Below, in pieces: positions 6,654 through 55,368 of a DNA stretch of 64,000 bases; the first letter of the stretch is position 1; the number at the start of each line of letters is the position of its first letter. The stretch lies in the IMG/VR virus record IMGVR_UViG_3300046524_000235. One strand, written 5' to 3'. Position numbers and translations under genes: made by a program. The stretch comes from a virus. Lineage: Duplodnaviria > Heunggongvirae > Uroviricota > Caudoviricetes. The notes under the pieces were generated by a model. It ran no database searches and was not told the DNA's origin. It worked only from the letters and a program-made list of their open reading frames with translations.

Positions 6654-6668
6654 CTCTTATACCAAAAT
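6654..6668 (-). promoter_or_regulatory. promoter-like motif
   Basis: Plus-strand ctcttataccaaaat, about 40 nt upstream of the ATG at 6615. Confidence 0.4.
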
Positions 6669-8369: not shown

Positions 8370-8491
8370 TTTTGGTTAGGTCCTTAGGTCGATGAAAAAT
8401 AATATAATTTTCTACTACAAGATTCTTATACCAAGTTTGTATCGAAAAACTAAAAAAAGAACAAATGAAAACGGAGCCGAAGCTCCGTGTG

Positions 8492-8720: not shown

Positions 8721-10127
8721 TTATATTGCAGCGTTCCTGCGAACTTCATTGAACGTCAGTTCCTTCACGAGCTTACCACCAGTGTACACGACTTCGAGAT
8801 GATCGTCACGACCCATTGCATTTTCACGACGGATCGTAGTCAGTTCACCGCTTTCGTCACTGACAAGTGCCAGACGCCCCTTCTTGCTAGTCTTGCCACC
8901 AGCAACAGGATCCTTGTACACGTCATTCCACTTGCCATCGATTTGAATTGCCGAAGCCTTCATTGCAAAGCCAAACGTATCACGGTCAAGCTTCTGGTGA
9001 AGAGCACCACCCATACCGAATGCAACGTTCTCAGCACTGAAACCATCCATCTTCAGAGCTGTGAGAATAGCTGCGATTGAGATCGGGTTTACACCGTCGC
9101 CTTGGATGACACGAACCTTGTTCAGGACTTTGAACCCTTTACCGTTCGTCGCGTATCCGAACTTGTCTGCGAGAATCCCAACAACCGTCCTAACAACCGA
9201 CACCGGATCTCCGGAATCAGGTCTAACAACGAGAGTACCAGGCAAAGCAAGGACAAAATCACGAAGGGTATCGCCCCAGACGTTTTTGACAGCATTAAAG
9301 ATGTCGTAACTATCAGAGACAACTGCGAAAAGGCCACTGCCGAACTTCTCAGCCATATTACGATATGCGTCCGCTTCTCCTGAACGCCCCCAACTAGTAA
9401 TAGTACTATGCTCAGCAGCAGGGATGCTAAACCCAAGAGAATCACGTTCTGCTCCGTAGAATTGATGAGCGTACTCCATGCCGAGCATGGTGTCCGTACC
9501 CATGAAGTTCACCAAGTGTGCGGCACCAGCAATAGCAGAAGTTTCTGCAGAACTAGCACCACGAGCACCGAAGTCATGAAGCTTAAAAGGAAGCTCGTCA
9601 AGCGGCTTATCGCACGTATCGACCAGTCCTTTGAAGATGATTTCTTTACAGTGACGGCTGATCGTCGCAACTGTGGTACCAAACCAGGCCGCACGAAGGA
9701 TTTGCGTTTCATAGAATGAACCCATCCAAAGCATTTCGGGATCGTGACATTCGACGTCAATGATAGCATTGCCGATAGGCACTTGCGTACCTTCAGCTAC
9801 AGCACGGATCGTGATAGGCGCACGACCTCCGTACACTTCCACCACTTTACGGAATGCGCCTTCTGCAAACGGCTCTCCGTGAAGCTTACAGATACGTCCT
9901 GCTTCAATCACGTCGTCAAGCGCAATCGGAGTCAGAAGGTGATCCTTGATGTAGCCTTGAAGGCCAAACGGAGTTACGTGTGTGATACCGAAACCGCTAT
10001 TGTCCTTACGGGGTTCTACGTAAGAAGACAGAGCAGTTGCACCAGCCGGGTATTGCAGGAAATGGCTGTGCTTGTATGAATCGGTATTGAGAAGCGGATT
10101 GATTTTGAATTGTGACATTATTAACAC
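8721..10127 (-). CDS. nadV: nicotinamide phosphoribosyltransferase (NadV)
   Basis: N-terminal LNTDSYK motif and overall NAMPT-like sequence, about 470 aa. Confidence 0.85.
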   Translation of the reverse strand: MLIMSQFKINPLLNTDSYKHSHFLQYPAGATALSSYVEPRKDNSGFGITHVTPFGLQGYIKDHLLTPIALDDVIEAGRICKLHGEPFAEGAFRKVVEVYGGRAPITIRAVAEGTQVPIGNAIIDVECHDPEMLWMGSFYETQILRAAWFGTTVATISRHCKEIIFKGLVDTCDKPLDELPFKLHDFGARGASSAETSAIAGAAHLVNFMGTDTMLGMEYAHQFYGAERDSLGFSIPAAEHSTITSWGRSGEADAYRNMAEKFGSGLFAVVSDSYDIFNAVKNVWGDTLRDFVLALPGTLVVRPDSGDPVSVVRTVVGILADKFGYATNGKGFKVLNKVRVIQGDGVNPISIAAILTALKMDGFSAENVAFGMGGALHQKLDRDTFGFAMKASAIQIDGKWNDVYKDPVAGGKTSKKGRLALVSDESGELTTIRRENAMGRDDHLEVVYTGGKLVKELTFNEVRRNAAI

Positions 10128-10171
10128 CTCGTTAATTAGAATGCCCAGAATCTATTTCTGGGACTTTTGTT

Positions 10172-11329
10172 TTAGATACCAAGCATCTTGCGAATGATCG
10201 ATGAGTGATCTTCGAAGATCAGTTCAGCGTGACTTAGTACATAGTCGATCTCGTACCAGTCTGTAGCCTTTTGCAAAGCGGTGCTTGCGACTGCATCGTC
10301 GCCACCCTTTACCTTAGGAAGCCCCGGCTTTTTGTCCGACTTATCCAGGTCAAAAAGAAAAGCGTGCGAAATAGTGCGCCCACGCAAACTACGGCCAGGA
10401 TGATCAAAAACAACACCGGCAGACATACTACCGCTAAGAAGACCTCTTGGAAGGTCAATCGAAGTTTCCTCTTGTAATTCACGGATCGCCGCATCTTCAA
10501 GCCTTTCATTTTGTTCCAGGAATCCTCCGGGTAATGCAAGGAGTCCTTCCCCCGGTGCAGCTTTACGCTTCACCATCAAAATATGACCAGCCTTCTTGAC
10601 AATCGCATCGACAGTCACAAAGGTAGGTGCATACGGTGCTGCTTTCCAGGAGTCTTTGTACTTCTGCACCATCTTGTATTCACGTCCAAGACGCAGATAC
10701 TCCGGAGTTTTGATGAACTCCTTGATGAAGCTAAAAGTGTACTCCGGAACCAAACTTTTGAGAAGCTCAATGAAACCAGGCTTCTCAAAGATTACTTCAC
10801 GGATAGCTGTAGCATCAAAGCCAAGCTTGACTTCGTCTACTGCAACGTAATCGTACTGCGGAAAGAGATCAAGGTAGTACGAGCTTTCGTCTTTCTTGTT
10901 ACCGACGATTGCAACCTTGCTTTTTACATCTTTGTCTGTCCAACCCTTTCCTGCCAAGAGAACAGTTGCTACTTCGTTTTGCACGGAAGTAACCCACTCA
11001 TCATCTGAGTAGAGGTTATCCACAAGCGGAGCCGTGAAAATGTTCGAAGTACCAGCCGCTTGAATAACCATTTGCGAACGTTCATCGTACGTAAATGGAT
11101 TCTTGATAGTGCGTGGTGCGTGCGAAGAACCGATAAGAACCAATACCTTGTCAGCCACCATGAACGCCTTATTCAAAAGGATCTGGTGACCTACATGCAA
11201 GGGTTCGAAACGACCAATGACTACAGCCAGGTCGTATTGATTTTCTTCTGTGGATACTGCAAGTTGTTTACTGCCAAAAGTAGCTGCGTACATTTCAGCC
11301 ACTTCATGATAAAGTTTACTATGTGACAT
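10172..11329 (-). CDS. natV: bifunctional NMN adenylyltransferase / Nudix hydrolase (NatV-type)
   Basis: GRFEPLHVGH nucleotidyltransferase motif N-terminally. C-terminal Nudix box GGFLEQNERLEDAAIRELQEETSI. Confidence 0.8.
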   Translation of the reverse strand: MSHSKLYHEVAEMYAATFGSKQLAVSTEENQYDLAVVIGRFEPLHVGHQILLNKAFMVADKVLVLIGSSHAPRTIKNPFTYDERSQMVIQAAGTSNIFTAPLVDNLYSDDEWVTSVQNEVATVLLAGKGWTDKDVKSKVAIVGNKKDESSYYLDLFPQYDYVAVDEVKLGFDATAIREVIFEKPGFIELLKSLVPEYTFSFIKEFIKTPEYLRLGREYKMVQKYKDSWKAAPYAPTFVTVDAIVKKAGHILMVKRKAAPGEGLLALPGGFLEQNERLEDAAIRELQEETSIDLPRGLLSGSMSAGVVFDHPGRSLRGRTISHAFLFDLDKSDKKPGLPKVKGGDDAVASTALQKATDWYEIDYVLSHAELIFEDHSSIIRKMLGI

Positions 11330-11856: not shown

Positions 11857-11933
11857 TTTGAGTCTCCTTAACGCTAAAGAAAAAGTGCCGAAAACGTTAT
11901 TGTTCCCGACACTGTGCTTATACCAATATTTAG

Positions 11934-13549: not shown

Positions 13550-13640
13550 GGTGTGAGCCCCCTTTGAGCGCAGTGGTTTCTGGAATTAGAATTTTTACCA
13601 TTATCCTTATACCAAATACGCTCTTGGCTAATCAAAAAAA

Positions 13641-15677: not shown

Positions 15678-16652
15678 TTACTCCGATTTCGGAGCAGCCT
15701 TCGGCGTCCAGTCGGTCGGAACCTTCAGCAGTTCCTTGTTTTCGACACGGTGCGACCCAACGTGGCCGACCAGAATGCCCAGCGGAACGAAGTTGTTCGT
15801 TTCCAGGCCATACGCCTTCGCACGGTTGATGTCGGCAATACGAGTCTTTGCAGCTTCGACGGTGTTGCGAGCCGAACGGATTTCTGATACGTTTTCTTCG
15901 ATTACGATTTCAGCAGCGTTCAGAACGCCCATCACTTCCTTAGCCGCCGCGATGGCCGCTTCCTTCTTCTGCGCTGCTTGCATGTCTTGCAGTGCTTCAC
16001 GCAGATCCACGTTCAGACCGCCGAAGTCAGCGACTTCCTTGGTGAATTGCGAATCTGCCAGACGGATTATTGCGTTGCTCATGGTCGTTTCTTCCTTTTT
16101 GGTTGTAGGTACTTCGAGTTTATTGCAGATGGTCTTGCCAGGGCGGAAATGCCGTTTCTTAAGATACTCCACCTTGACCTGATCGGTGATAGGGGTGCCG
16201 TCAGTATACTCAAACTGCACACCTTCCCTTGACACAATTACCGTGTAATCGTTGCATGGAATCAGATCTTCTACTGGCAAAAGGTGAAGGTGAAGCTGAT
16301 ACGGACGGGACTTGGAGTCTGTTGACTCTATCTTCTTGGCGAGGTATAACTTACAAGAGCCGCCCATTACTTCAGGCTGTTTGATTTCAAGGAGAAAAGA
16401 TCCGCTCGCACTAGGACAGTGCCCGCCAACGAGCCTGTCGCATTTGGAGCAGCTCTGTTTCTTGGCGTCGAGTTTTTCCTTAAGCAACTGGCCGAGATTG
16501 GGCACTGCAGTTACTGGCTCATTCTCCTTCTGCTCAAAGTCGTTCATGCAAGGTCCGACCTTTGCGCTGACCGGTGTGAACCGATGGTCGAGATACTTTC
16601 CACCGCACGCAACACCAGGCCCTTTGAATTTTTTGCAATCACCGCACGGCAT
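15678..16652 (-). CDS. hypothetical protein with Cys-rich N-terminus (324 aa)
   Basis: CGDC…C…C clusters and an Ala/Lys-rich coiled C-terminus. AAGGAG SD upstream of the ATG at 16652. Confidence 0.5.
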   Translation of the reverse strand: MPCGDCKKFKGPGVACGGKYLDHRFTPVSAKVGPCMNDFEQKENEPVTAVPNLGQLLKEKLDAKKQSCSKCDRLVGGHCPSASGSFLLEIKQPEVMGGSCKLYLAKKIESTDSKSRPYQLHLHLLPVEDLIPCNDYTVIVSREGVQFEYTDGTPITDQVKVEYLKKRHFRPGKTICNKLEVPTTKKEETTMSNAIIRLADSQFTKEVADFGGLNVDLREALQDMQAAQKKEAAIAAAKEVMGVLNAAEIVIEENVSEIRSARNTVEAAKTRIADINRAKAYGLETNNFVPLGILVGHVGSHRVENKELLKVPTDWTPKAAPKSE

Positions 16653-17075
16653 TATTTCTCCTTATCTACAACGATTAAGTTCTGCAGCCTAAGACAAAGC
16701 TTAAGCGTTGAAGGGAACCCCGTACTGGACTACGGGGGTACTGCGGTTTAGTTTCGGTGGTCCAAACACCTAGTTGGTTTCGCTGCCTTACCAACAGAAG
16801 TTCCAACAGAAAGAGTGCAACTACATCTCTCTCTTCAGCTTTCCAACAGCGCTCCGTCCTTTATAGAGCTTCGCCTCATCAGCGCCAGAATCGAACCGGC
16901 CCCTCTGTTGGAAGTTTCCCCTTAACTGATTCGTTTAACTCTCAGCTAATCCGGTAGCGACTCCACTCTACCTCTCGACAGTTAGTTAATCCTCGTCAGG
17001 ACTTTGGTGATTCGAACACCATCGCTTGGTTCAGGGGAAAAGAAAGGCATCGAATAAATACAATGCTTCCTAATA
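16653..17075 (-). ncRNA. long structured leader or candidate ncRNA with tRNA-like T-arm motifs
   Basis: About 420 nt between the promoter-like motif (17076..17089) and the ATG at 16652. Contains GGTG-TTCGAAT-CACC and GCCGG-TTCGATT-CTGGC T-arm-like hairpins and an 8-bp ACCCCGTA/TACGGGGT hairpin. Confidence 0.3.
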
Positions 17076-17113
17076 AACTTATACCAATTCGAAATGTCGA
17101 AATTGAATAAAAC

Positions 17114-17485
17114 TTACAGACAACGCTCAATCACGTTTGCGATTTGCTTGAAGCTCAGCCTATCCGTATCATTCAGGTTTACCAGGGTAGTTGCCTGACC
17201 ACGATACGTAACATTGATATCAGTAGGCTCTGCTGCATCTTTCTCGCTTGCAACCTCCATCAAACCTGCCCACTCTACAACTGCAGGAGGAAGATGCCCG
17301 AATGCGTCCATATAGCTAAATTTGCTAGTCTCTTTTGCAGCAAGTTCCGGATGCTCTTGAGCATGAATGTTGCATAGAACGCCGAGGCAACAGAATCCAA
17401 TATCGTCACGGAGTTGGCCAGTAGTACGGGGGTAGTCACCGCTGCGAAGAGCTTTGAGCCACTTAGTTTTTACACGCTTTTTCAT
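17114..17485 (-). CDS. CCLGVL-family paralog P8
   Basis: KWLKALRSGDY, CCLGVLC, WAGL, LNDTDRLSFKQIANVIERCL. Confidence 0.6.
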   Translation of the reverse strand: MKKRVKTKWLKALRSGDYPRTTGQLRDDIGFCCLGVLCNIHAQEHPELAAKETSKFSYMDAFGHLPPAVVEWAGLMEVASEKDAAEPTDINVTYRGQATTLVNLNDTDRLSFKQIANVIERCL

Positions 17486-17514
17486 TTCAATTCTCGTTTA
17501 AAGTTGTTTACGAC

Positions 17515-17874
17515 TTACAGTTGTGCTTCAATAAGATCAGCGATTCCGGAAAATCCGGGATTCAAGCTAGGGCTATCGTTGAGAGTCCAAAGATCTTTCT
17601 TTGAGCCTTCGAACATTACCTTGCCATCATCATCAAGGCCGGCCCACCTACGGACTTCATCTGCAAGCATTCCCGGCGAATTTCCGTAAACAACCACTCC
17701 CTCAAGACCGTCGGGGTAGTGAAATCCCTTGCTCTCAGGATGCTCTTTGAGATGAAGTTCACAAAGAACGCCGAGGCAACAGTGACCTTCAGTCTTTTTA
17801 AGCTGACCTGTAGTCTGCTTGTACTCACCGCTACGAAGAGCGGCTACCCATTTTGCTTTTACCACTTGGTTCAT
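17515..17874 (-). CDS. CCLGVL-family paralog P7
   Basis: KWVAALRSGEYKQ, CCLGVLCE, WAGL, LNDSP…IADLIEAQL. Confidence 0.6.
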   Translation of the reverse strand: MNQVVKAKWVAALRSGEYKQTTGQLKKTEGHCCLGVLCELHLKEHPESKGFHYPDGLEGVVVYGNSPGMLADEVRRWAGLDDDGKVMFEGSKKDLWTLNDSPSLNPGFSGIADLIEAQL

Positions 17875-17876
17875 AT

Positions 17877-18233
17877 TTAAAGATCGTACTTAATAAGATC
17901 AACGATTTGTGAAAACGGCATATCGTGGTCGTTAAGGTTTGAAAGCCAAACTTCTCCGCCTTGCCTATTCGTGATCGACAATCCCCCGTCGAAAGACGCA
18001 AGACCAGACCACTTTTTAACTTGTACAGGCAAGTTACCTTCCGCTTTAAGAATGAGCTTCTTACCATAATCGAAATTGGAATTAACCCACGGCTCGCCCG
18101 TTTCCTTGGAATAGATATCGCAAAGAACCCCAAGGCAGCAGAACTGTTCATCTTTGTTGAGATTGAACTTTCCCTGCTTATACTCTCCGCTCTCAAGAGC
18201 AGCAATCCATTTCTGTTTGACTTCTTCGTTCAC
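17877..18233 (-). CDS. CCLGVL-family paralog P6
   Basis: KWIAALESGEYKQ, CCLGVLCD, WSGL, LND…FSQIVDLIKYDL. Confidence 0.6.
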   Translation of the reverse strand: MNEEVKQKWIAALESGEYKQGKFNLNKDEQFCCLGVLCDIYSKETGEPWVNSNFDYGKKLILKAEGNLPVQVKKWSGLASFDGGLSITNRQGGEVWLSNLNDHDMPFSQIVDLIKYDL

Positions 18234-18574
18234 AGTTGAGCCTCGATAAGGTCTGCGATTTGGTGAAAGTTGTATCCACGGCCATCATTAAGAAAAGGGA
18301 TAGACGAATGCATCGAATATCCTTCAACCTTAAATCTTATAGCCTGAAAGTTAACATCAGCCCATTCAGAGATATGGGAAGGAGGAAATCCTTCCATCGA
18401 ATCAAACGATTGCTTCTTAGCACCAGTCTCTTTATCATGAACCTCGCACAAGACACCAAGGCAGCAGTGAGATGTACTACCATCTACCTCGTTTTGCTTA
18501 AGCCTATACCGGGTCTGTTTGTACTCCCCGCTGCGCAAGGCTTCAACCCACAGTTTCTTTACACGTTCGTTCAT
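18230..18574 (-). CDS. CCLGVL-family paralog P5
   Basis: LWVEALRSGEYKQ, CCLGVLCE, LND…FHQIADLIEAQL. ATGA overlap with the neighbour. Confidence 0.6.
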   Translation of the reverse strand: MNERVKKLWVEALRSGEYKQTRYRLKQNEVDGSTSHCCLGVLCEVHDKETGAKKQSFDSMEGFPPSHISEWADVNFQAIRFKVEGYSMHSSIPFLNDGRGYNFHQIADLIEAQL

Positions 18575-19011
18575 AGCGCGTATTTGATAACGTCAGCGAT
18601 TTGAGAGAAGGTGAGACCGGAGTCGTTCAGAGTTGCCAGAGTGAAGTAGTCGTATTGATTTATAGGATCATCTCCTTCTACCCAGCTCTTAGCCGGAACC
18701 ACTGCTGGGTTCTCACCTTCGATGCCTGCCCAATCTTGGACTTTCTTATCAAGAGTCTTACCATTACCCTCGAAACGGAAAAGCGGTTTGTTGAGCAATT
18801 CCGTTGGGTAATAGTCTTCGTCATCGACAATTTCATCAAGTGGCTTAACAGTGTGCGGTTCCCACTTGGCACCTTGATTCTCCTGGATATACAGATCCGT
18901 GAGAACTCCAAGGCAGCACATGCCTTCACCGGTATTAAGACACTTCGTGGCTTGTTTATACTTACCACTTTCCAGTGCCCACACCCACTTTTCTTTGACT
19001 TGTTCGTTCAC
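18571..19011 (-). CDS. CCLGVL-family paralog P4
   Basis: KWVWALESGKYKQ, CCLGVLTD, WAGI, LNDSGLTFSQIADVIKYAL. Confidence 0.6.
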   Translation of the reverse strand: MNEQVKEKWVWALESGKYKQATKCLNTGEGMCCLGVLTDLYIQENQGAKWEPHTVKPLDEIVDDEDYYPTELLNKPLFRFEGNGKTLDKKVQDWAGIEGENPAVVPAKSWVEGDDPINQYDYFTLATLNDSGLTFSQIADVIKYAL

Positions 19012-19391
19012 AGTTGAGCCTCGATGATGTCAGCGATTTGGTTGAAGTCGAACGACAAATCATCGTTCAAGTCCATCAAGTTGGAATTACGAGACCTAAT
19101 ATCGGCCTCTTCGTCGGAAAGAATAACCGGAGCATCCCCATGATTCGCAAGAATACCGGCCCATGCTCCAACTTCGCTAGGAAGAGACGTGTATTCTCTG
19201 TCAAACCTGTACCGTCCCAACTTAGCATCGAACTCCCATTTGAACTCTGGAAACTCTTTGGAGTAAACATCACACAGAACACCGAGGCAGCAGAAGCCTT
19301 GATTATCCTTGAGTGAGTATTGGGTCTGCTTATACTCCCCGCTTCGAAGCGCAGTAAGCCACTTGGCTTTAACTTCTTGATTCATCTTCAT
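19008..19391 (-). CDS. CCLGVL-family paralog P3
   Basis: KWLTALRSGEYKQ, CCLGVLCD, WAGI, LNDDLSFDFNQIADIIEAQL. Confidence 0.6.
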   Translation of the reverse strand: MKMNQEVKAKWLTALRSGEYKQTQYSLKDNQGFCCLGVLCDVYSKEFPEFKWEFDAKLGRYRFDREYTSLPSEVGAWAGILANHGDAPVILSDEEADIRSRNSNLMDLNDDLSFDFNQIADIIEAQL

Positions 19392-19786
19392 TACAGAAAC
19401 GCCTTGATAAGATCTGCGATTTCAGGAAAGGTAATGCCTTCGTCGTTCAGAGCTGCAATACTTGTGCTGATGTCGGCTTCCGGAATAGGTTCAGGATCTT
19501 TCCCTATAAAATTTGCACGTTCAGCGAACGGAAGATACGGAACATTTGTGTCAATACCGGACCATGCCTGAACATCTAGAGGGGTTAGGTAAACCTCTCC
19601 ATCGAAACCAGGCTTGCCTTCATCTTCAATGAATTCCCACTCCAGGCCATGTTCTTTTGCGTAAATATCTGTCAGAACTCCTAGGCAACAAAAGCCGCCC
19701 TGGCCATTGTTCAAACAGCTCTTACCTTGGCTATATTCGCCGCTAGTAAGAGCTTCAACCCATTTCTGTTTGATTAGTTCATTCAT
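19391..19786 (-). CDS. CCLGVL-family paralog P2
   Basis: KWVEALTSGEYSQ, CCLGVLTD, WSGI, LNDEGITFPEIADLIKAFL. Confidence 0.6.
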   Translation of the reverse strand: MNELIKQKWVEALTSGEYSQGKSCLNNGQGGFCCLGVLTDIYAKEHGLEWEFIEDEGKPGFDGEVYLTPLDVQAWSGIDTNVPYLPFAERANFIGKDPEPIPEADISTSIAALNDEGITFPEIADLIKAFL

Positions 19787-20229
19787 TACAGAAACGCCTT
19801 GATAAGATCTGCGATTTGAGGAAAAGAAATACCAGCGTCATTTGCGCCAGCTACGCTTTCGTGGTATTCGGACATTTTGTCTTCATCAATCTCAATGTCT
19901 TCGCTATTGTGATCTTCGTCACGAGGAATAAAAGGAAGAAGAGGAATCGGTTCTTTCAAACCAGCCCAGTCTCTTACTATGGAGGTAAGTACTCCAGCTT
20001 CATCCCATTCATTAGGATTCCCACCAGGAGCATCCAGTGCATACCGCGTAACACCTGCCTTAACTCCGTAATCGCTCAGTTTCCACTTGCCACCATTTTC
20101 CTTGATGTACAGATCCGTGAGAACACCGAGACAGCACATTCCTTGGCCATCGTTAAGACAACCTTTAGTCTGTAAATATTCCCCGCTGTTCAAAGCTTCA
20201 ATCCATTCCTGCTTAATTTGTTCGTTCAT
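19786..20229 (-). CDS. CCLGVL-family paralog P1 (start at internal Met MNEQIK)
   Basis: EWIEALNSGEYLQ, CCLGVLTD, WAGL, ANDAGISFPQIADLIKAFL. The track ORF runs to 20334, but all paralogs begin MNExxK. Confidence 0.55.
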   Translation of the reverse strand: MNEQIKQEWIEALNSGEYLQTKGCLNDGQGMCCLGVLTDLYIKENGGKWKLSDYGVKAGVTRYALDAPGGNPNEWDEAGVLTSIVRDWAGLKEPIPLLPFIPRDEDHNSEDIEIDEDKMSEYHESVAGANDAGISFPQIADLIKAFL

Positions 20230-20375
20230 GGTCTTGATCCGGTATAGGTTATTATTACAATACAGGCTAACGCAATTGCGACGCCCAGTGTCCAAACTGA
20301 TGCCTTTAGAGCGGCCTTCATTTTGAGAAGCCAAAAAAGAGAGTGTAGAATTAAAGAGCTACTTCTTATACAACT

Positions 20376-20390
20376 CTCTTATACCAAAAT
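20376..20390 (-). promoter_or_regulatory. promoter-like motif (TTGGTATAAGAG in minus sense) upstream of the paralog array
   Basis: Plus-strand caactctcttataccaaaatt. Nearly identical to the copy at 6648..6668. Confidence 0.45.
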
Positions 20391-20402
20391 TGAGGACTAT
20401 AA

Positions 20403-21020
20403 TTAGTCGTCGTGCTTGCCGTCGTAATGACCTTTCCAGTACCCTTTATTCAATTCTCCGTTTATTGCCTTAACAAGAGTTTGAGCGGGAGCTTCTCTCA
20501 GAGCAAGCATCATTGCGAAGTTAGCAATATCGGTAGGGTCACCCTTGTACAAGTGTTCAACCAACATATCTGCAAGTTTATCAACACTGCACCTTTCAGG
20601 ATTGTCCCAACCGCCACGACCTTTCTCCCGAGCTTTAGCGAGCTTCGCTTTCATCATTGCTGCAAACTTATCCACAGCAACGTCGTCGGGATGAGGTTCT
20701 TCAACGGGTTGTTTGAAGCCCTGAAACATCTTCCTCAACTCTTCCATTCCCGCTTCAACTTGTCGAGCAGCTTCTGCAAAGGCCTCATACTGAGCAAATT
20801 GAACCGGAGACTTTTCATGTCCCAGAGCTTCAAGCATCATCTTCAGATCTTGCAAAGCAATTTCTCTATTCTTGTGCTGAGACCTGTGCGTATCACATGT
20901 AGCAGAAGCTCCTGTCGGGATATGAGTTGCACGAACCCCTACCCCCATAGAGGAGCCTACCCACGTTCTAGGCTCCGTATAAAACACATCTAACTTAATG
21001 TCTTTTGGATCAAGTTCCAT
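20403..21020 (-). CDS. release-factor (RF-1/GGQ-domain) homologue lacking the GGQ motif
   Basis: VRATHIPTGASATCDTHRSQHKNREIAL aligns to RF1 [28 protein letters not shown]. The position of SGAGGQHVN is occupied by PRTWVGSSMGVG, so there is no GGQ. Confidence 0.6.
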   Translation of the reverse strand: MELDPKDIKLDVFYTEPRTWVGSSMGVGVRATHIPTGASATCDTHRSQHKNREIALQDLKMMLEALGHEKSPVQFAQYEAFAEAARQVEAGMEELRKMFQGFKQPVEEPHPDDVAVDKFAAMMKAKLAKAREKGRGGWDNPERCSVDKLADMLVEHLYKGDPTDIANFAMMLALREAPAQTLVKAINGELNKGYWKGHYDGKHDD

Positions 21021-21273
21021 TTTTAGTATCTCTCATTGCATAGGCGAAGTCACCAAGGCTTGAGGCTTCTTCTGCCATTTGTTTAAGTTCTTTGATTCTT
21101 TCGGCCAGCGTAATCACTGCCTGAGCCGATGTGCTGATTACACCTTCAGCTTTGTACTTCTCCGCCAGCGCCAGAGCTTCGTTGATTGTCATTGTTGACA
21201 TTCTCCGTTTCGTCTTTGTAAAGATGAGCCTCACAGAACATGAAAGCTCGTCCCAGTTTGTCCACATGCACAA
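21010..21273 (-). CDS. hypothetical protein (87 aa)
   Basis: Intact ORF. Confidence 0.35.
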   Translation of the reverse strand: MCMWTNWDELSCSVRLIFTKTKRRMSTMTINEALALAEKYKAEGVISTSAQAVITLAERIKELKQMAEEASSLGDFAYAMRDTKNGT

Positions 21274-21586
21274 GCGAGCCGCTAAATTGACTCAGCTTAG
21301 TCGGTGACTTGGACCTACACCCGTCGCATTGATTGATCATTTTAGGTAAAGCACGATAGAGACGAAAGAAAATACAAAGAATCCTCCTGCAAAGAAAAGT
21401 TCGAATACAGTTGAGACTTTTCTTCCAGTAGGAAGATTTGTTTCTCGAATAGTAAGCACACCGAGAAGTAAACTGAGAATACAAAGAGTAATGTCGAGAA
21501 TAATATGAAACATAGATATACAAAAAGAAAAGTTAGGGGATACAGCACCAGGACCAGCCTAAGCCAGTCCCGGTGCGGTTCAGTTG

Positions 21587-22252: not shown

Positions 22253-22408
22253 TTCTTGGTTTAAAACTTCATCGAGTTTTGATAAGGAAAAAACAAACTA
22301 CTACTACAGTTGACCCACTACTTGTGTGTACTCCGAGTAGTGAGCCGTAAAGAAATGATTATGTGTTCCGTAATATACTTATACCAAGCCATATCACGAA
22401 ACTTGAAA

Positions 22409-26155: not shown

Positions 26156-26172
26156 ACATAGCACACGCCAAC

Positions 26173-26243
26173 TAAAACAAGGGGGACTCGAACCCCCAGC
26201 GTCACAAGAGTTTGTGCTGCTCTACCGATTGAGCTATTGTTTT
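26173..26243 (-). tRNA. tRNA-like element / probable pseudo-tRNA (anticodon not assignable)
   Basis: All-A·U acceptor AAAACAA/TTGTTTT, good D arm and GGGGG-TTCGAGT-CCCCC T arm. The only clean anticodon stem (CACAA/TTGTG) encloses a 4-nt loop. Confidence 0.35.
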
Positions 26244-26264
26244 AAAAAGATATTCTCTTTTACA

Positions 26265-27393: not shown

Positions 27394-27416
27394 GATGAAC
27401 CTTGTGGTGAAAACGA

Positions 27417-35685: not shown

Positions 35686-35700
35686 ACTCTTATACCAAAT
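35686..35700 (-). promoter_or_regulatory. promoter-like motif upstream of tRNA-Leu
   Basis: Plus-strand actcttataccaaat. Confidence 0.4.
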
Positions 35701-45507: not shown

Positions 45508-45522
45508 CACTTATACCAAAAT
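45508..45522 (-). promoter_or_regulatory. promoter-like motif upstream of the Hen1-Pnkp operon
   Basis: Plus-strand cacttataccaaaat, next to a GATAGGA-CGAA-TCCTATC hairpin. Confidence 0.4.
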
Positions 45523-45710
45523 CATAGGTATTGTGTGAAAGGTCCAGTTGGATCTGGTTGGCGAGTGAAGGTTGCTGGGCCTTTAAAGGCGTCTTCATAA
45601 TAACCGCAAGACTTACATTCTACCCAAAGAGGTGCATTGACTAGACGGTGTTTATTCAATTCGCCGCATTCAGGGCATTCTTCTAGGATATTGGTCATTG
45701 CAGTTTCCAC
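45522..45710 (-). CDS. zinc-ribbon protein (62 aa)
   Basis: CPECG…CKSCG. Confidence 0.4.
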   Translation of the reverse strand: METAMTNILEECPECGELNKHRLVNAPLWVECKSCGYYEDAFKGPATFTRQPDPTGPFTQYL

Positions 45711-46699
45711 ATTTCGTAAGACCGTTTTACATCTTCGGTCAGTTGTTCCAATTTCAGACTATCTACCATTCTCTGAAAGGCTTCTCTGTCTTCACCTCTG
45801 TAATCAGACATGAAGTTTCCAAGCTCTTTACCGGTAAGGCCAGTCCACTCAGATACGTTATTACCGTTGAACTTATCCTTAACACGCTCTGCTCGGAAAT
45901 AGTCAAGCGTGGCCTTGATAAAGTTCAGACCTATCTCTTGTGGCTCAGCTTCAGAAGCCAGCAGGATGCCGAGATCTTTTGAACCTCGCTTATCATTAAG
46001 ATGTTTATTATCCATCCACTCCAAGAAAAGCATATACGTATTGCGTTTCTTATCACGGACTCGGCCTACAGCATTACGATTTTCCAACAGGTAATTCCAC
46101 TTAGTGAAGTACTTGCTTGAGATTACGTATTCAAAGATAGCTTCCAGGTTATCAAATCCCAATGCATACCTGGAAGGGTCGTATCCGAGAAGATCGAGGG
46201 CCTTTTCAAAGTTCTGAGTGATACAGATTTCTTTGACAAGAGTGGTTCCGACGATGTACTTATACCAGAGACCGTCGTGGCCAAACTTGAGACCGAGCCC
46301 ATGAGCAGTCTGACCGATAAGATTACCAAGATCATTGAAAGCAAAATACTTAAAGGCAAAGTCATGGATTTCTCTAGGGACGGTAATGAAATCAATTTGA
46401 AAAATGGTTCGCTTAAACATCAAACCAGAAATGTCTAAAGCGAAAGAGATAACGTTTCCGTTAGTGTGAACCTCAGGAGAGTTAAGAGCTTTTTCGCAAA
46501 ACTCTCTAAGAGTCTTTATCTCAATACCTGAAATCAGAATGTCAAGATCACCAAAACTCTCTTTCTCTCTATATGCCGGAATAACTGAAATGATTGCGTC
46601 TGGAAAAGCTTCTTTAAGAACAGTACTCGTACCTTCTGCTACATAGTCGTAGTACTGTTTCTCCAGACGGACTGCATTGCTGATTGCATTACCGCCCAT
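45695..46699 (-). CDS. nucleotidyltransferase-fold protein (function unknown)
   Basis: SFGDLDILISG resembles the Pol-beta-superfamily G…DxD motif. Confidence 0.35.
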   Translation of the reverse strand: MGGNAISNAVRLEKQYYDYVAEGTSTVLKEAFPDAIISVIPAYREKESFGDLDILISGIEIKTLREFCEKALNSPEVHTNGNVISFALDISGLMFKRTIFQIDFITVPREIHDFAFKYFAFNDLGNLIGQTAHGLGLKFGHDGLWYKYIVGTTLVKEICITQNFEKALDLLGYDPSRYALGFDNLEAIFEYVISSKYFTKWNYLLENRNAVGRVRDKKRNTYMLFLEWMDNKHLNDKRGSKDLGILLASEAEPQEIGLNFIKATLDYFRAERVKDKFNGNNVSEWTGLTGKELGNFMSDYRGEDREAFQRMVDSLKLEQLTEDVKRSYEMWKLQ

Positions 46700-47653: not shown

Positions 47654-48103
47654 TTATTCCTTTGGAATTGCTGATACTGCTAATTGATCTACTGCTTCAT
47701 TCCAGACATTACCGGAATGACCTTTGACCCATTTCCATGTCAAATTCTTATGCTGTTCACAAACTCTGTCTAACCGTTCCCATAGGTCTCGATTTTTAAC
47801 TGGTTGTTTATTTGAACCGATCCAGTTCTTTGTCTTCCAACCTTTAATCCATTCTGTAATTCCTTGCAGAACGTATTTGGAATCCGTTATTACAACAATT
47901 GATTCAGGCTTGCCATCTAGGAAAGATTCTAGGCCTGAAATTGCACCCATTAGTTCCATGCGATTATTGGTCGTATCTTTCTCTCCGCCACTTCCACGTT
48001 CCAACATTCCATTTGTTTCGCTTACTGCAATGTACCCATACCCGCCTGGCCCTGGATTACCAGAGCAGGCTCCATCGGTGTAAATGGTAACCTGCTTCGT
48101 CAT
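47654..48103 (-). CDS. rnhA: ribonuclease HI
   Basis: TDGACSGNPGPGGYG…MELMG…ITDSKYV…HSGNVWNEAVD. Confidence 0.8.
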   Translation of the reverse strand: MTKQVTIYTDGACSGNPGPGGYGYIAVSETNGMLERGSGGEKDTTNNRMELMGAISGLESFLDGKPESIVVITDSKYVLQGITEWIKGWKTKNWIGSNKQPVKNRDLWERLDRVCEQHKNLTWKWVKGHSGNVWNEAVDQLAVSAIPKE

Positions 48104-49812
48104 TATGCCTTCTTCTTAAATAACATATCGTTAATTGCTTCTTGCGTTACGCCGCGATGTACTTGTTCTACTTGACCCCAGTTAAAGCCGATTTCACCTT
48201 CAACTCCAATCGGAAGATCAAGCCAATCAAAGTTTTCGACAGGCCATTCGTTCATATAGTAGAACGCTGTTTCAATTACTTGTGCTGCATTCTCAATCGG
48301 AATCTCAAACTCAATCGAATCGTACACAGTACAGATTGACTTGTTACGGGGATCAAGTTTCTTGATTGCTTCATTCAGATTAGCGAATGTAACTAGACCA
48401 AGAGTTGAAGTCGCACTTTGAATCCGTACGTTCTGAGCATTTCGAAGAGATGCGTTATACGCTGCAGTCTTCTTGAATACTTCTTGTGCTACATACTCAT
48501 GCTTGTACTGACCAAATGGAGTCCACACCTTCTGATTCCAACGAGCCATGTTATGTGACTCCTCAATGTAGTCCTTAACTCCAGGATATGCATTGAAGTA
48601 CATGTTGACCAGACGCTCAGCCTCGTCCTTCTCAATCGCTAGCTGCATTGCAATACCGCCGACTGACGAACCATACAAAATCGAGAACGTCAAAGTCTTA
48701 GCAACTTGTCGCATACGCTTGTATTCTTTGTTAAGCGCATTAGTCTTATCTTCAAGAACGTGAATGTAATCGTCGTACGGAATTCTCATCATAGCACTTG
48801 CGGAATAGGAGTGAAAATCAAGTCCCTCAGCAATTGCCTTCAGCATATTCTTGTCTTTACAGATTGCTCCGAGAATCTTTACTTCCGCTGACGAAAAATC
48901 GAAAGCAATAAACACATTACCGGAGTCAACAGTATAACATTCCCTAACGTTGTAGCCATGTTTTGGCCGAGGTAACTGTGTAAGATTTGGGGAATCACCA
49001 GTGATGCGAAAACTACTAGTACCGAACATGTTATAGCTAGGATGAATACGACCATCACGCTTAACAAAGTCTTCGACATACGTTTTGATGAACGTGTTAT
49101 GTACACTGTTGATATCCTTTCTTTTAGCCATGTCTGCCAAGAACTGAAACTTGGGGTCTTCGGCAGTATATTGGTTGGCTAGTGGATTTAAACCAGCCAA
49201 GGTTAAGAGTGCAGCACCGTCAGTTGCATCGTCACCAGACTTCGTTTTAAACGGGGCAACAAACCCTAACTCTTCATAGAGCAACTTGCCGACTTCCGTG
49301 CCGGAATCAAGGTTAATACGTTTGCCTAATGCTGTGAAAATCTTCTCGTCAAATTCTTCAACTTCACGAACCATCTGCTCAGAGATCTTACGGTTACGAT
49401 CTACGTCATAGACCATTCCGTTAATTTCCAAGTCAATGATGAATTCGTGACACATCATCTCTGTATTGACAATCGATTCGATAATCGCTGGAGCCTTGGC
49501 CTTAATTGGCGCTCCTGTCGGTCCTGCAATCTGAACTTCCTGCGGCTTGACCATTGCTGGCCATAAACCTGTCAGAACCTCTGACGTTACGATATTGTCG
49601 ATACCTGCATATACATACAAGTCTTCGCTATCAAAGTCCTCGTATGTACGGTAGATCTTCTTTTCTAATACCGGTTCTTCTACCTTTGGCTTAGGCTCTG
49701 CTTTCTTGCGAGTTTTTTTCTCTACTGGCTGTTCAACTACCGCTGCAACAATCTTCTCTTCTAGAATCTGCTCAGTTGACTTCTTTGCTTTTGGATCTAC
49801 GCGCTTAATCAC
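48103..49812 (-). CDS. DNA polymerase I family (family A), polymerase domain part
   Basis: Pol A motif A (FIAFDFSSAEVKIL) and motif B (RQVAKTLTFSILYG). Begins with GTG or an alternative start 8 nt inside the upstream ORF. Confidence 0.8.
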   Translation of the reverse strand: MIKRVDPKAKKSTEQILEEKIVAAVVEQPVEKKTRKKAEPKPKVEEPVLEKKIYRTYEDFDSEDLYVYAGIDNIVTSEVLTGLWPAMVKPQEVQIAGPTGAPIKAKAPAIIESIVNTEMMCHEFIIDLEINGMVYDVDRNRKISEQMVREVEEFDEKIFTALGKRINLDSGTEVGKLLYEELGFVAPFKTKSGDDATDGAALLTLAGLNPLANQYTAEDPKFQFLADMAKRKDINSVHNTFIKTYVEDFVKRDGRIHPSYNMFGTSSFRITGDSPNLTQLPRPKHGYNVRECYTVDSGNVFIAFDFSSAEVKILGAICKDKNMLKAIAEGLDFHSYSASAMMRIPYDDYIHVLEDKTNALNKEYKRMRQVAKTLTFSILYGSSVGGIAMQLAIEKDEAERLVNMYFNAYPGVKDYIEESHNMARWNQKVWTPFGQYKHEYVAQEVFKKTAAYNASLRNAQNVRIQSATSTLGLVTFANLNEAIKKLDPRNKSICTVYDSIEFEIPIENAAQVIETAFYYMNEWPVENFDWLDLPIGVEGEIGFNWGQVEQVHRGVTQEAINDMLFKKKA

Positions 49813-51064
49813 TTTCTACTTCCTCTTCGTCTTCTTCAGTCTCTTCACCTTCTTCAGGTGCATTCTTAGTTAGCTTTGGTAATAGGTCTTCGTAACCACC
49901 CAGTCCAGTCCAAGGAACAATATCCCAGACTGCTGTTTTCAGCGAGTACGTACCCTGAGCCCCACTATCTAGACTGTGTAAAACTAAAAGAGTATCAAAT
50001 GCCATATTCTTTACACGAACTTTTGTCGTGTGCCAAATATATAAGATATCGAACTTTATGTTGTGGCCTACTTTTGGCCTATCGCTCTCTAGGAACAGTT
50101 TTACAAATTCCCAAGCTTCATCTGCGTTGTACATCTTATTCTCACGATGCCACAACGGAATTACCAAAGCCTTTACTTGCTTGTCAACCTGATCTCTATA
50201 TCCAAACTGAACACACAGAAGCTTTGCATTCTCAGCCAGTCCATCCAGACTAGTCGTTTCAGTATCTAGACTTACAATTGCATTTGCAGGAAGTTTAATC
50301 AACGTATTCATAAAATCCTTTACGTCGTCAAGGCTTCTCGCTACTCGAATTCGGTTCTCTTTATAGAACTTGATTGCTTCTTCAAGAGTAGGCGGTTTTA
50401 AATGCCCTGTAGCCATCGCTACGGCCTTCTTGAAGTCCCGGAGGATCACGCCATACAACTCTTGACCCCAGAAGGCCCCAGAGGCGTTCTGACGAATCAT
50501 CGTCAATGCTCTTGGATGAATTGTGATGATTACATTATCAATGTACTCGCCACGATTACCCGTGTTACTGTGCTTCTTATATCCAAGTGCTTTAGTGACT
50601 GCTGTTGCCAGACTGATAATCACTTTAGGTTTGCAACGCTCTATCTCTTCTAAAAGATAAGGCTTGCATTTCATAAGCTTTGTTGCAGTCGGTGCTTTAC
50701 CCTTTGGGAAGTCTTCTTCGTTAGGAGCACACTTAAGCAAGTTTACAAGACGGTATTTCAAATCTCCGAATCCTGCTTGCTTGCAGAGATGGTGAATAAT
50801 GTCTTGTTGAATCTTCTCTTGCTGTCCTTCTACTCTGTCCCACTTCCCAGCAGGTGCCGCATGGTCCTGAATGATCAGGATGTCTACTTCGTTTTGAGCA
50901 AGACGTACGTTGTTGTACGATTTGCATTTCAGCTTACAGACTTTGTCGCAATATGTTTGACTAATCTTGCTGAAATCTTCCTTGCTATGGATTGCCACTT
51001 CTACAGACGTTGTAATCTTTCTTTCATACAACTCGTTCAGTGGAAGATCTGAGATCTTTGCCAT
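49805..51064 (-). CDS. DNA polymerase N-terminal part: UDG-like domain + 3'-5' exonuclease
   Basis: Exo I motif (VSLDTETTSLD). N-terminal region is family-4 UDG-like (as fused to SPO1-type Pol A). Acidic C-terminus. Confidence 0.7.
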   Translation of the reverse strand: MAKISDLPLNELYERKITTSVEVAIHSKEDFSKISQTYCDKVCKLKCKSYNNVRLAQNEVDILIIQDHAAPAGKWDRVEGQQEKIQQDIIHHLCKQAGFGDLKYRLVNLLKCAPNEEDFPKGKAPTATKLMKCKPYLLEEIERCKPKVIISLATAVTKALGYKKHSNTGNRGEYIDNVIITIHPRALTMIRQNASGAFWGQELYGVILRDFKKAVAMATGHLKPPTLEEAIKFYKENRIRVARSLDDVKDFMNTLIKLPANAIVSLDTETTSLDGLAENAKLLCVQFGYRDQVDKQVKALVIPLWHRENKMYNADEAWEFVKLFLESDRPKVGHNIKFDILYIWHTTKVRVKNMAFDTLLVLHSLDSGAQGTYSLKTAVWDIVPWTGLGGYEDLLPKLTKNAPEEGEETEEDEEEVESD

Positions 51065-52566: not shown

Positions 52567-52579
52567 ACTTATACCAAAA
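52567..52579 (-). promoter_or_regulatory. promoter-like motif at the edge of the iteron region
   Basis: Plus-strand acttataccaaaa. Confidence 0.4.
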
Positions 52580-55298: not shown

Positions 55299-55368
55299 TT
55301 TCTGGACAATAAAAAAGCCAGGTAAAAACCTGGCTTCATAACTCTTATACCAATAAACGCTTTATTGT

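Follow-up and report, generated by a model that had tools for sequence, protein, structure and literature searches.

An operon of eight anciently diverged DUF8296 paralogs in an uncultured phage

Introduction

What does a phage do with eight related small genes in a row, the products of which share their ends and differ in between? The question is posed by a locus in IMG/VR record IMGVR_UViG_3300046524_000235, a virus of the Caudoviricetes, of which we analysed one stretch of 64,000 nucleotides (64 kb; hereafter the window, with coordinates counted from its first letter). A preliminary description, made from the sequence alone, had taken the locus for a tandem array of paralogs of an unrecognised family and had read its pattern of conserved termini and hypervariable cores as rapid diversification on a fixed scaffold, with effector, anti-defence or decoy proteins as candidate roles. 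Our analysis shows that the locus is one operon of eight anciently diverged, individually conserved paralogs of the family DUF8296. The earlier observation is confirmed with minor corrections, while its interpretation is partly supported and the locus is less exotic than had been proposed.

The array encodes eight members of the DUF8296 family

The open reading frames (ORFs) listed for 16000-21500 include eight consecutive homologous genes of 114-148 amino acids (aa) on the minus strand at 17114-20232, as had been described. They are numbered here in the order of transcription; related contigs and loci carry L numbers, and individual proteins P numbers.

c1, 19786-20232, minus strand: DUF8296 paralog of 148 aa, isoelectric point (pI) 4.3, long variable segments
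c2, 19391-19786, minus strand: DUF8296 paralog of 131 aa; ortholog L010_c2, 65% identity
c3, 19008-19391, minus strand: DUF8296 paralog of 127 aa, MKMNQE start; ortholog L010_c3, 62% identity
c4, 18571-19011, minus strand: DUF8296 paralog of 146 aa, GTG start; variable segment 1 of 40 aa
c5, 18230-18574, minus strand: DUF8296 paralog of 114 aa; middle motif WADV; ortholog L010_c4, 64% identity
c6, 17877-18233, minus strand: DUF8296 paralog of 118 aa, GTG start; ortholog L010_c5, 58% identity
c7, gene 17515-17874, minus strand: DUF8296 paralog of 119 aa, inside a 383-bp cassette at 17494-17876
c8, 17114-17485, minus strand: DUF8296 paralog of 123 aa, final array gene; most widely conserved orthogroup

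The ORF of c1 is extendable to a TTG at 20334, and the ATG at 20232 is favoured by the alignment and by the gene calls in relatives. The c1 product shares 64% identity with its L010 ortholog and 45% with its closest paralog, c2, and its variable segment 2 is very acidic, with a net charge of -9. The products of c3 and c5 are identical to P0001, which occurs on at least 24 public contigs, and to P0015, respectively.

In an alignment of the eight copies (A1), 23 columns are invariant and identity to c8 ranges from 31 to 46%. These columns bear out the conserved N-terminal, CCLGVL and C-terminal blocks of the preliminary description: an N-terminal helix motif, CCLGVL, a Trp in the middle, and the pattern ND...F..I..I...L at the end. 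Of the W[AS]G[LI] motif proposed for the middle, the Trp is conserved, whereas the remainder does not hold in c5. The products are small and most are acidic (predicted pI 4.1-6.8), the long loops of c1, c2 and c4 strongly so; no membrane or signal features were noted. An unfiltered six-frame search of the 64 kb with a hidden Markov model (HMM) recovered exactly eight copies (E 4e-33 to 9e-42), with neither array remnants nor any further match below E = 1, and no other paralog family was found in the window. At the level of sequence, a resemblance by chance is excluded.

The family, which the preliminary description had not recognised, is a catalogued one. All eight copies match phrog_18067 over its full length (E 4.6e-15 to 3.8e-23; profile positions 1-126 of 129 or more), and products identical to those of c3, c5 and c7, as well as the whole array on contigs L001 and L003, carry the precomputed label PF26948:DUF8296. 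By these matches, the eight proteins are members of Pfam PF26948 (DUF8296) and PHROG 18067, a family to which no function has been assigned. The profile searches thus lead to a family that is not well characterised, and copy number does vary among relatives (see below), so that the description of the array stands. The Pfam set used to scan the eight copies, which did not contain the PF26948 model, gave no significant match, nor did NCBIfam or PADLOC; searches of PDB sequences with two profiles returned 0 matches at E <= 10, and no enzyme homology of DUF8296 was found in Pfam, NCBIfam or the PDB. We found no paper on PF26948, DUF8296 or phrog_18067.

DUF8296 is widespread. More than 6,400 relatives, all pre-annotated as PF26948, were found in a large protein database, and a profile search of 1.84 billion cluster representatives (clusters at 50% identity) yielded 44,812 clusters at E <= 1e-3 and 30,003 at E <= 1e-10. 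Among the best 150 of the 44,812 clusters, a single domain and a length of 106-143 aa characterise every representative except five (243-377 aa), which have two or three matched stretches and prove from their sequences to be in-frame DUF8296 fusions of 2-3 domains. Members occur on viral contigs of 8.5 kb to 391 kb and in prophage-like early regions of Actinomycetota, Proteobacteria, Bacteroidota, Cyanobacteria, Chloroflexota and Patescibacteria, as well as in some archaeal metagenome-assembled genomes (MAGs), and tblastn with one copy matched 7 of 50,697 cultured-phage records. The median pI of the family is 4.5 and the median net charge -9. The eight copies have the signature residues of the family, with R14 replaced in c1, c2, c4 and c6 (by N, T, E and E), and the variable segments of c1, c2, c4 and c8 are longer than those of a typical family member of ~112 aa.

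The array looks like a single transcription unit

Read from the sequence, five of the seven junctions between the genes overlap, but ATGA, which had been given for most of them, is found at c4/c5 only. Two are GTGA overlaps (c3/c4 and c5/c6), two are TAATG with a 1-nt overlap (c1/c2 and c2/c3), and gaps of 2 nt and 29 nt separate c6 from c7 and c7 from c8. At both GTGA junctions, GAGG lies within the ATC-GAG-GCT codons (I-E-A) of the gene tail, 7 nt ahead of the next start, so that the conserved IEAQL tail doubles there as a ribosome-binding site.

The promoter-like site noted upstream of the array is real as a recurrent motif, TTGGTATAAG, which is of the extended -10 type and has no clear -35. 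Exact copies number 13 in the window and are confined to the minus strand; with up to one mismatch the count rises to 21, compared with 3.1 expected from shuffles. Two exact copies flank the array:

20378-20387, minus strand: TTGGTATAAG upstream of the array; a leader of 145 nt separates it from the start codon of c1
17078-17087, minus strand: next TTGGTATAAG copy, 27 nt past the c8 stop, marking the downstream boundary of the unit

Inside the array there is no copy of TTGGTATAAG, and a simple scan found no canonical terminator above background. With the motif on either side and absent between, and the terminator scan at background, the array looks like a single transcription unit with, to judge from the motif, one extended -10 promoter of the host type as its probable origin.

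The copies are old and are gained and lost as cassettes

Copy number does vary among relatives, for which a search had been suggested. Eight copies are present in the window and in L001, L003, L004 and L006, seven in L002 and L008, and six, five and four in the more distant L010, L011 and L029. Counting copies within 6 kb, 65 of 79 viral loci have one copy, seven have two, three have three, one has four, two have five and one has six; among 67 loci in bacterial genomes, the corresponding numbers are 49 with one, ten with two, five with three, one with five and two with six. The eight copies described here thus form the largest DUF8296 array observed.

Six of the genes (c1, c2, c3, c5, c6 and c8) pair with copies of L010, in the same order and at 58-69% identity, in a neighbour-joining tree (which has no bootstrap support values) and in the identity matrix. 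Orthologs of c8 occupy the last array position of L010, L011 and L029 (67-72% identity), whereas c4 and c7 have no ortholog in any of these three. In comparison, paralogs within the array share 31-48% identity, and for c3, c6, c7 and c8 many proteins of unrelated metagenomic phages are closer than any paralog in the array. At the nucleotide level, repeats between copies are 60-72% identical, except for the gene tails of c1 and c2, which share 89% identity across 61 nt. The arrays of the unrelated phages L040, L043 and L082 form clades of their own, which indicates that expansion took place independently in unrelated phages. Independent DUF8296 arrays of about six copies each are also seen at L110 5968-9252 (Opitutales MAG) and L115 2255-4439 (Dehalococcoidia MAG), and such arrays in contigs of unrelated bacterial genomes suggest that tandem expansion of DUF8296 recurs across phyla.

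Among close relatives, three JGI metagenome contigs of different sample origin, L003, L004 and L007, match the array region at 100% identity, and L002, a 181,869-bp contig of the European Nucleotide Archive, matches it at ~96%. Of the copies shared with L002, c4 is the most diverged (89% nucleotide identity). BLAST comparison with L002 and L008 reveals a clean indel of 383 bp at 17494-17876, with c7 present in the window and missing in both relatives. In L002 and also in the distant L010, a c6-type gene is directly followed by a c8-type gene, which identifies c7 as a cassette insertion in the lineage of the window. The array is shown by these comparisons to be accessory, turning over by cassette gain and loss.

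Blocks and loops are both under purifying selection

Orthologs mostly share 63-91% identity in the conserved blocks (50-100% when every block and pair is counted) and mostly 35-61% in the variable segments, from which it follows that the loops are paralog-specific and maintained. The segments had been described as completely different, which is true between paralogs, where they cannot be aligned, but not between orthologs. The comparison of nonsynonymous and synonymous substitution rates (dN/dS; Nei-Gojobori) for each segment, which had been suggested as a check, draws on the two close relatives L002 and L008 only, and gives 0.09 and 0.06, respectively, for the blocks and 0.27 and 0.22 for the loops. 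The loops thus evolve at about three times the ratio of the blocks (Fisher p = 0.002 and 0.0006), but at a ratio similar to that of an unrelated flanking gene (0.27) and with no sign of an arms race. By this measure, blocks and loops are both under purifying selection, and the differences from the ~96%-identical relatives are mostly synonymous. With orthologs at 58-72% identity as against 31-48% for paralogs, and with dN/dS well below 1 in blocks and loops alike, the claim of rapid diversification does not hold.

The same data bear on active hypervariation or a recent burst, whether through a diversity-generating retroelement (DGR), recent tandem duplication with positive selection, or a genomic accordion. 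Cores that cannot be aligned between paralogs and differ in length, a copy number that varies among relatives and the threefold excess of loop over block dN/dS all speak for such a process, but orthologs retain the paralog-specific loop sequences, loop dN/dS is similar to that of an unrelated neighbour, and the array is unchanged in three contigs from different samples. Moreover, the copies are as distant from each other as from family members in unrelated phages, and at 60-72% nucleotide identity they include no template/variable pair. Indeed, the array has no DGR signature in the form of a near-identical template/variable repeat pair, a result that does not extend to reverse transcriptase, for which no whole-window search was made. 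A DGR or recent duplication was rejected on the loops kept in orthologs, the 60-72% repeats and the low dN/dS.

Predicted scaffold and conserved residues

An AlphaFold2 model of c6, computed from an alignment of 85 sequences, has a predicted local distance difference test score (pLDDT) of 90.9 and a predicted template modelling score of 0.86. It comprises a helix at residues 3-14, short strands, a helix at 33-45, a beta-hairpin at 49-61, a helix at 70-76, a low-confidence loop at about 78-96, and helices at 97-102 and 107-117. The conserved blocks coincide with the helices, whereas variable segment 1 forms a confident beta-hairpin and variable segment 2 the low-confidence loop, in keeping with the fixed scaffold and variable segments proposed earlier. 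The copies are thus predicted to share an alpha/beta scaffold with five helices and two variable segments. A Foldseek search with the model against 350,542 chains returned nothing with E below 3, and the predicted fold would therefore be one with no solved relative within the libraries searched, which excludes membership of any structurally characterised anti-defence family.

Across 341 diverse members, 21 positions are 90-100% conserved, namely W9, A12, L13, R14, S15, G16, Y18, Q20, L25, C32, C33, L34, G35, V36, L37, N101, D102, F107, I110, A111 and I114; D39 and E115 are conserved to 86-87% and C38 to 84%. The Cys-Cys pair, which had been called invariant and a possible metal-binding or redox site, is close to invariant in these members (C32 0.99, C33 0.98). 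However, divergent genomic members replace the second Cys (C-A, C-V or C-P) and keep the first as C-[A/V/P]-[L/M]-G. In the c6 model, the conserved Cys lies at the N-terminus of helix 2, a position that typically makes a thiol reactive.

DUF6197 is a probable remote relative

Beside the DUF8296 genes of a Nocardia prophage (L095) lie three ORFs resembling DUF6197 (PF19698), one product of which, P0259, is a true DUF6197 member. DUF6197 is found in 142 actinophage records, all annotated as 'hypothetical' among those listed, and the one paper found on it is a genome announcement. The eight copies have no direct match to DUF6197 in a Pfam scan with E up to 1. Comparison of the DUF8296 profile (A2) with an alignment of 12 DUF6197 sequences by hhalign gave a probability of 85.8% and E 5.4e-6, with 32 columns aligned confidently and a co-linear match over 105 columns when extended greedily; the DUF6197 alignment was built from phage records, as a word-indexed homolog search with the DUF6197 seed returned the seed alone. 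The extended match pairs helix 1, C32 with Cys, G35 with Gly, ND with ND, and the S/T-x-x-E capping box.

The two families are alike in the order of their motifs, with an N-terminal helix, G-aromatic-x-Q-G, C-x-x-G-[AV]-L at a helix start and ND-x-x-x-[ST]-x-x-[EQ]-[IV] before the C-terminal helix, as well as in size, early-region occurrence and the formation of local paralog clusters. DUF6197, which is also uncharacterised, differs in having one Cys instead of two and no W-A-G block. Homology at the superfamily level is, from these profile comparisons, probable but unproven. As DUF6197 keeps only the first Cys, the idea of a Cys-Cys metal or redox site is weakened.

Fusions of DUF8296 include none to an informative domain: those found join DUF8296 to itself (DUF8296-DUF8296(-DUF8296)), and one includes an uncharacterised 'C-x-L-G' module. 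In two small prophage modules, at L139 5707-6414 (Lentzea chromosome) and L091 7987-8415 (Inquilinus), a helix precedes C-x-L-G or C-C-A-M-G, and the C-terminal helix is similar; one module is fused N-terminally to a DUF8296 domain and the other adjoins a DUF8296 array. A wider superfamily of 'C-x-x-G' phage early proteins may exist beyond DUF8296 and DUF6197.

Genomic context

The window is the early, replication-side arm of an uncultured phage of ~181 kb. It encodes ribonucleotide reductase (RNR) subunits, a split DNA polymerase, primase, exonuclease, a ThyX-like protein, an SPFH protein and an AAA ATPase, nearly all on the minus strand. The locus has no megablast match among 50,697 phage records. 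For the primase, identity to the enzymes of Vibrio phages D69, D181 and D148 (187 kb) and of Salmonella phage Arash (181 kb) is 31-35%. The following features are referred to below:

20403-21020, minus strand: RF-1-domain protein of 205 aa; Pfam RF-1, 37.6 bits; phrog_20323; phrog_8298 C-terminal domain
8721-11329, minus strand: NAMPT (PF04095 and NAMPT_N) beside a bifunctional cytidylyltransferase-like (NMNAT)/NUDIX protein, 7 kb from the array
45695-46699, minus strand: DNA polymerase ORF, phrog_24943
48103-49812, minus strand: DNA polymerase ORF, phrog_17
49805-51064, minus strand: DNA polymerase ORF, phrog_17, matching a different part of the profile

The gene upstream of the array encodes an RF-1 (peptidyl-tRNA hydrolase) domain protein that has no GGQ (...VGSSMGVGVRATHIPTG...THRSQHKNRE). 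In L010, L011 and L029, a homolog immediately precedes the array, and none adjoins DUF8296 in other phages, so that the RF-1-like gene is a syntenic partner of the array in this lineage only. It has zero differences from its counterpart in L002, whereas the array differs by 3-11%, which points to recombinational mosaicism.

No neighbour family recurs among ~295 neighbouring ORFs at more than 80 loci, the commonest being found at 5 of ~70 loci. The neighbours in other phages include helicase and primase (4-5 loci), ligase, ERF, NinB, Rad52, single-stranded DNA-binding protein (SSB), methyltransferases, HNH, Bro/ANT and DNA polymerase I, and DUF8296 always sits in the company of accessory genes of lytic phages and prophages, be they early, replication, recombination or methylase genes. 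In its domain content, the NAMPT and NMNAT/Nudix pair looks like a NARP2-type pathway of nicotinamide adenine dinucleotide (NAD+) reconstitution. NAD+ salvage of the NARP2 type is a phage counter to NAD-depleting defence (PMC12028318). The matches of the three polymerase ORFs suggest a split family-A DNA polymerase.

Possible functions of the array

We propose, tentatively and with a probability of roughly 0.4, that the operon supplies a co-expressed set of small acidic binding proteins with loop-encoded specificities for host takeover or counter-defence; an anti-defence or decoy role, as suggested at the outset, is plausible. The eight proteins would act as stand-alone binding modules, in which the conserved scaffold would supply the fold and possibly a common docking or ligand site around Y18, Q20, C32, N101 and D102, and each paralog would owe its particular target to the two loops. 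Several host factors, most plausibly ones involved in defence or takeover, could in this way be neutralised or redirected by the phage at the same time. A new specificity would arrive as an entire gene cassette that recombines at the conserved ends of the genes, as for c7, and would not be gained by in-place hypermutation.

Several lines of evidence point in this direction, beside the identity and layout of the genes and the confidently predicted fold. The higher identity of orthologs than of paralogs, the retention of the loops and the low dN/dS imply distinct retained functions for each copy. The copy number of 4-8, the c7 insertion, the mosaicism of array and neighbour and the independent arrays of 2-6 copies in unrelated phages and prophages indicate the behaviour of an accessory locus with fast turnover. 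Finally, acidity, a single small domain, the lack of enzyme homology, the lack of a fixed neighbour and the domain fusions are binder-like properties. In addition, we count the NAD+ salvage pair, 7 kb away on the same strand, in favour of binding proteins with a counter-defence role.

Several considerations weigh against this proposal. We found no interaction partner, experiment or characterised homolog to back any function. About 20 residues, several of them polar, are conserved to 90% or more in phages from many bacterial phyla, and such cross-phylum conservation of polar residues suits a universal ligand or catalytic site better than host targets specific to a lineage, although the S/T-x-x-E capping box and G35 could simply be fold determinants. 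The dN/dS values of the loops show nothing of an arms race, and characterised anti-defence proteins are usually narrower in distribution than DUF8296. We infer early expression of the array from the promoter motif and the gene neighbourhood only, and the two-domain fusion P0121 reached a pLDDT of just 32.8 when modelled with AlphaFold2 from a single sequence.

The conservation of these residues would be accounted for if the polar cluster of R14, S15, Y18, Q20, C32, D39, N101, D102 and E115 bound or modified one universal molecule, for which a nucleotide or NAD-derived signal, a nucleic acid end or a conserved cofactor are candidates; the loops would then tune the oligomeric state or substrate class, and the array would consist of sponges or small enzymes. 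We regard a common ligand of this kind as the main rival, less likely than not but not far behind the binding modules. The polar residues are near-invariant in the 341 diverse members, and a core of aromatic-x-Q, C, G and ND is kept in divergent members from Cyanobacteria, Chloroflexota, Patescibacteria and Bdellovibrio and in the probable relative DUF6197. The modelled position of the conserved Cys at the start of helix 2 and the nearby NAD+ salvage pair fit as well, and known phage sponges are similarly small. However, no conserved His or other partner residue is present for a classical Cys-based active site, any pocket formed by the conserved residues is putative, and eight long-retained, loop-divergent paralogs would be unusual for a single-ligand function. 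It is this long retention of loop-divergent copies that favours binding modules over a common ligand.

An improbable alternative is that the proteins are replication or recombination accessories that modulate the DNA metabolism of phage or host, for example as adaptors for helicase, primase, polymerase, SSB or recombinase, with different paralogs for different partners. The RNR, split DNA polymerase, primase, exonuclease and ThyX of the window arm lend some support, as do the helicase or primase, ligase, ERF/NinB/Rad52, SSB, DNA polymerase I and methyltransferase neighbours in other phages and the DUF6197 genes that adjoin DNA polymerase I in Gordonia and Mycobacterium phages. Proximity of this kind is weak evidence, since in most phages genes for replication stand side by side with accessory ones in the early regions. 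Moreover, none of the neighbour families is recurrent, and a single copy is dispensable, as phages that are 96% identical differ in having or lacking c7. As for active hypervariation, the selection and synteny data above all but refute it, and we give it almost no credence.

A reading that goes further is less probable. DUF8296, probably joined by DUF6197 and the 'C-x-L-G' modules, could form a very large, structurally new superfamily of phage proteins for counter-defence. Its conserved core site would recognise something that bacterial immune systems have in common, for instance a signalling nucleotide or a shared surface of their effectors, with specificity residing in two exchangeable loops. 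In the operon, cassette exchange would then have put together an anti-immunity set with several targets, a viral counterpart of the immunity-protein arrays. We regard this reading as distinctly speculative.

DUF8296 is among the more abundant uncharacterised phage protein families and has a confidently predicted fold with no solved relative. The repeated independent expansions and the retained, loop-divergent paralogs show that the diversity of copies is itself selected. Moreover, the array offers eight natural specificity variants on one scaffold, together with a natural knock-in/knock-out of c7, and hence a compact screening panel, with which tests against defence-system libraries or ligand panels could reveal what tens of thousands of 'hypothetical' genes of phages do.

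Comparison with known systems

What we describe is an already catalogued DUF that occurs here in an array of unusual size, and not a new kind of system. The copies resemble other DUF8296 proteins in length class (~106-150 aa), signature and early-region context in phages and prophages, and differ in number, as most sampled genomes have one copy and this phage eight. Membership explains nothing mechanistically, given that the family has no assigned function.

Immunity arrays of polymorphic toxins (SUKH and other Imm proteins) are heterogeneous tandem sets of small, often acidic, single-domain paralogs, with divergent binding surfaces on a common scaffold, each copy neutralising a different partner, and with gain and loss of cassettes (PMC3482391). 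The array described here behaves analogously, but has no fold or sequence similarity to a solved immunity protein. In addition, immunity arrays sit in bacterial conflict loci, whereas this array belongs to a large phage of lytic type, and neither a toxin gene nor a toxin-domain neighbour was found in the window or among the 295 neighbouring ORFs of other loci.

Among large eukaryotic DNA viruses, the multigene families MGF360/505 of African swine fever virus and the 'genomic accordion' of poxvirus K3L amplification provide tandem accessory paralogs that vary in copy number from one close isolate to another and are believed to act against host immunity. Neither the proteins nor the hosts are related to those considered here, and accordion expansions are recent and near-identical, whereas the DUF8296 copies are ancient (31-48% identity) and stably syntenic. 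With the phage anti-defence proteins in the PDB (Ocr, Tad1/Tad2, Acb1/Acb2, Gad1 and anti-CRISPRs), no shared fold or sequence was found.

Further features of the window

Besides the two copies that flank the array, the exact copies of TTGGTATAAG include those at the following sites:

6656-6665, minus strand: TTGGTATAAG
8425-8434, minus strand: TTGGTATAAG
11917-11926, minus strand: TTGGTATAAG
13606-13615, minus strand: TTGGTATAAG
22378-22387, minus strand: TTGGTATAAG
35689-35698, minus strand: TTGGTATAAG
45510-45519, minus strand: TTGGTATAAG
52568-52577, minus strand: TTGGTATAAG
55344-55353, minus strand: TTGGTATAAG

The motif is nearly always intergenic across the window and probably defines early or middle transcription units of the phage. 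Beyond the array lies a 461-nt gap free of ORFs (16653-17113, minus strand), which has a promoter motif at its start, followed by ~425 nt of untranslated sequence that includes a T-arm-like GGTTCGATTCTGG. The gap gave no Rfam match above noise, no ARAGORN tRNA and a marginal fold z-score of -1.9, and could be a long leader or an unannotated RNA.

The stop codons of 77 minus-strand ORFs are TAA (53), TGA (22) and TAG (2). A tRNA with anticodon CTA, an amber suppressor, is encoded at 27405-27480 on the minus strand (called 'Pyl' by ARAGORN; 74.8 bits in Rfam, the best match of the window). Stop-codon recoding by this suppressor was considered and rejected for this arm, there being no in-frame TAG in the genes of the window; the late genes lie outside it. 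ARAGORN places a cluster of 21 tRNA genes at 14626-35630 on the minus strand, among them an odd call, 'tRNA-???', at 26172-26244, and Rfam adds one further tRNA at 30282-30354 that is not among the ARAGORN calls.

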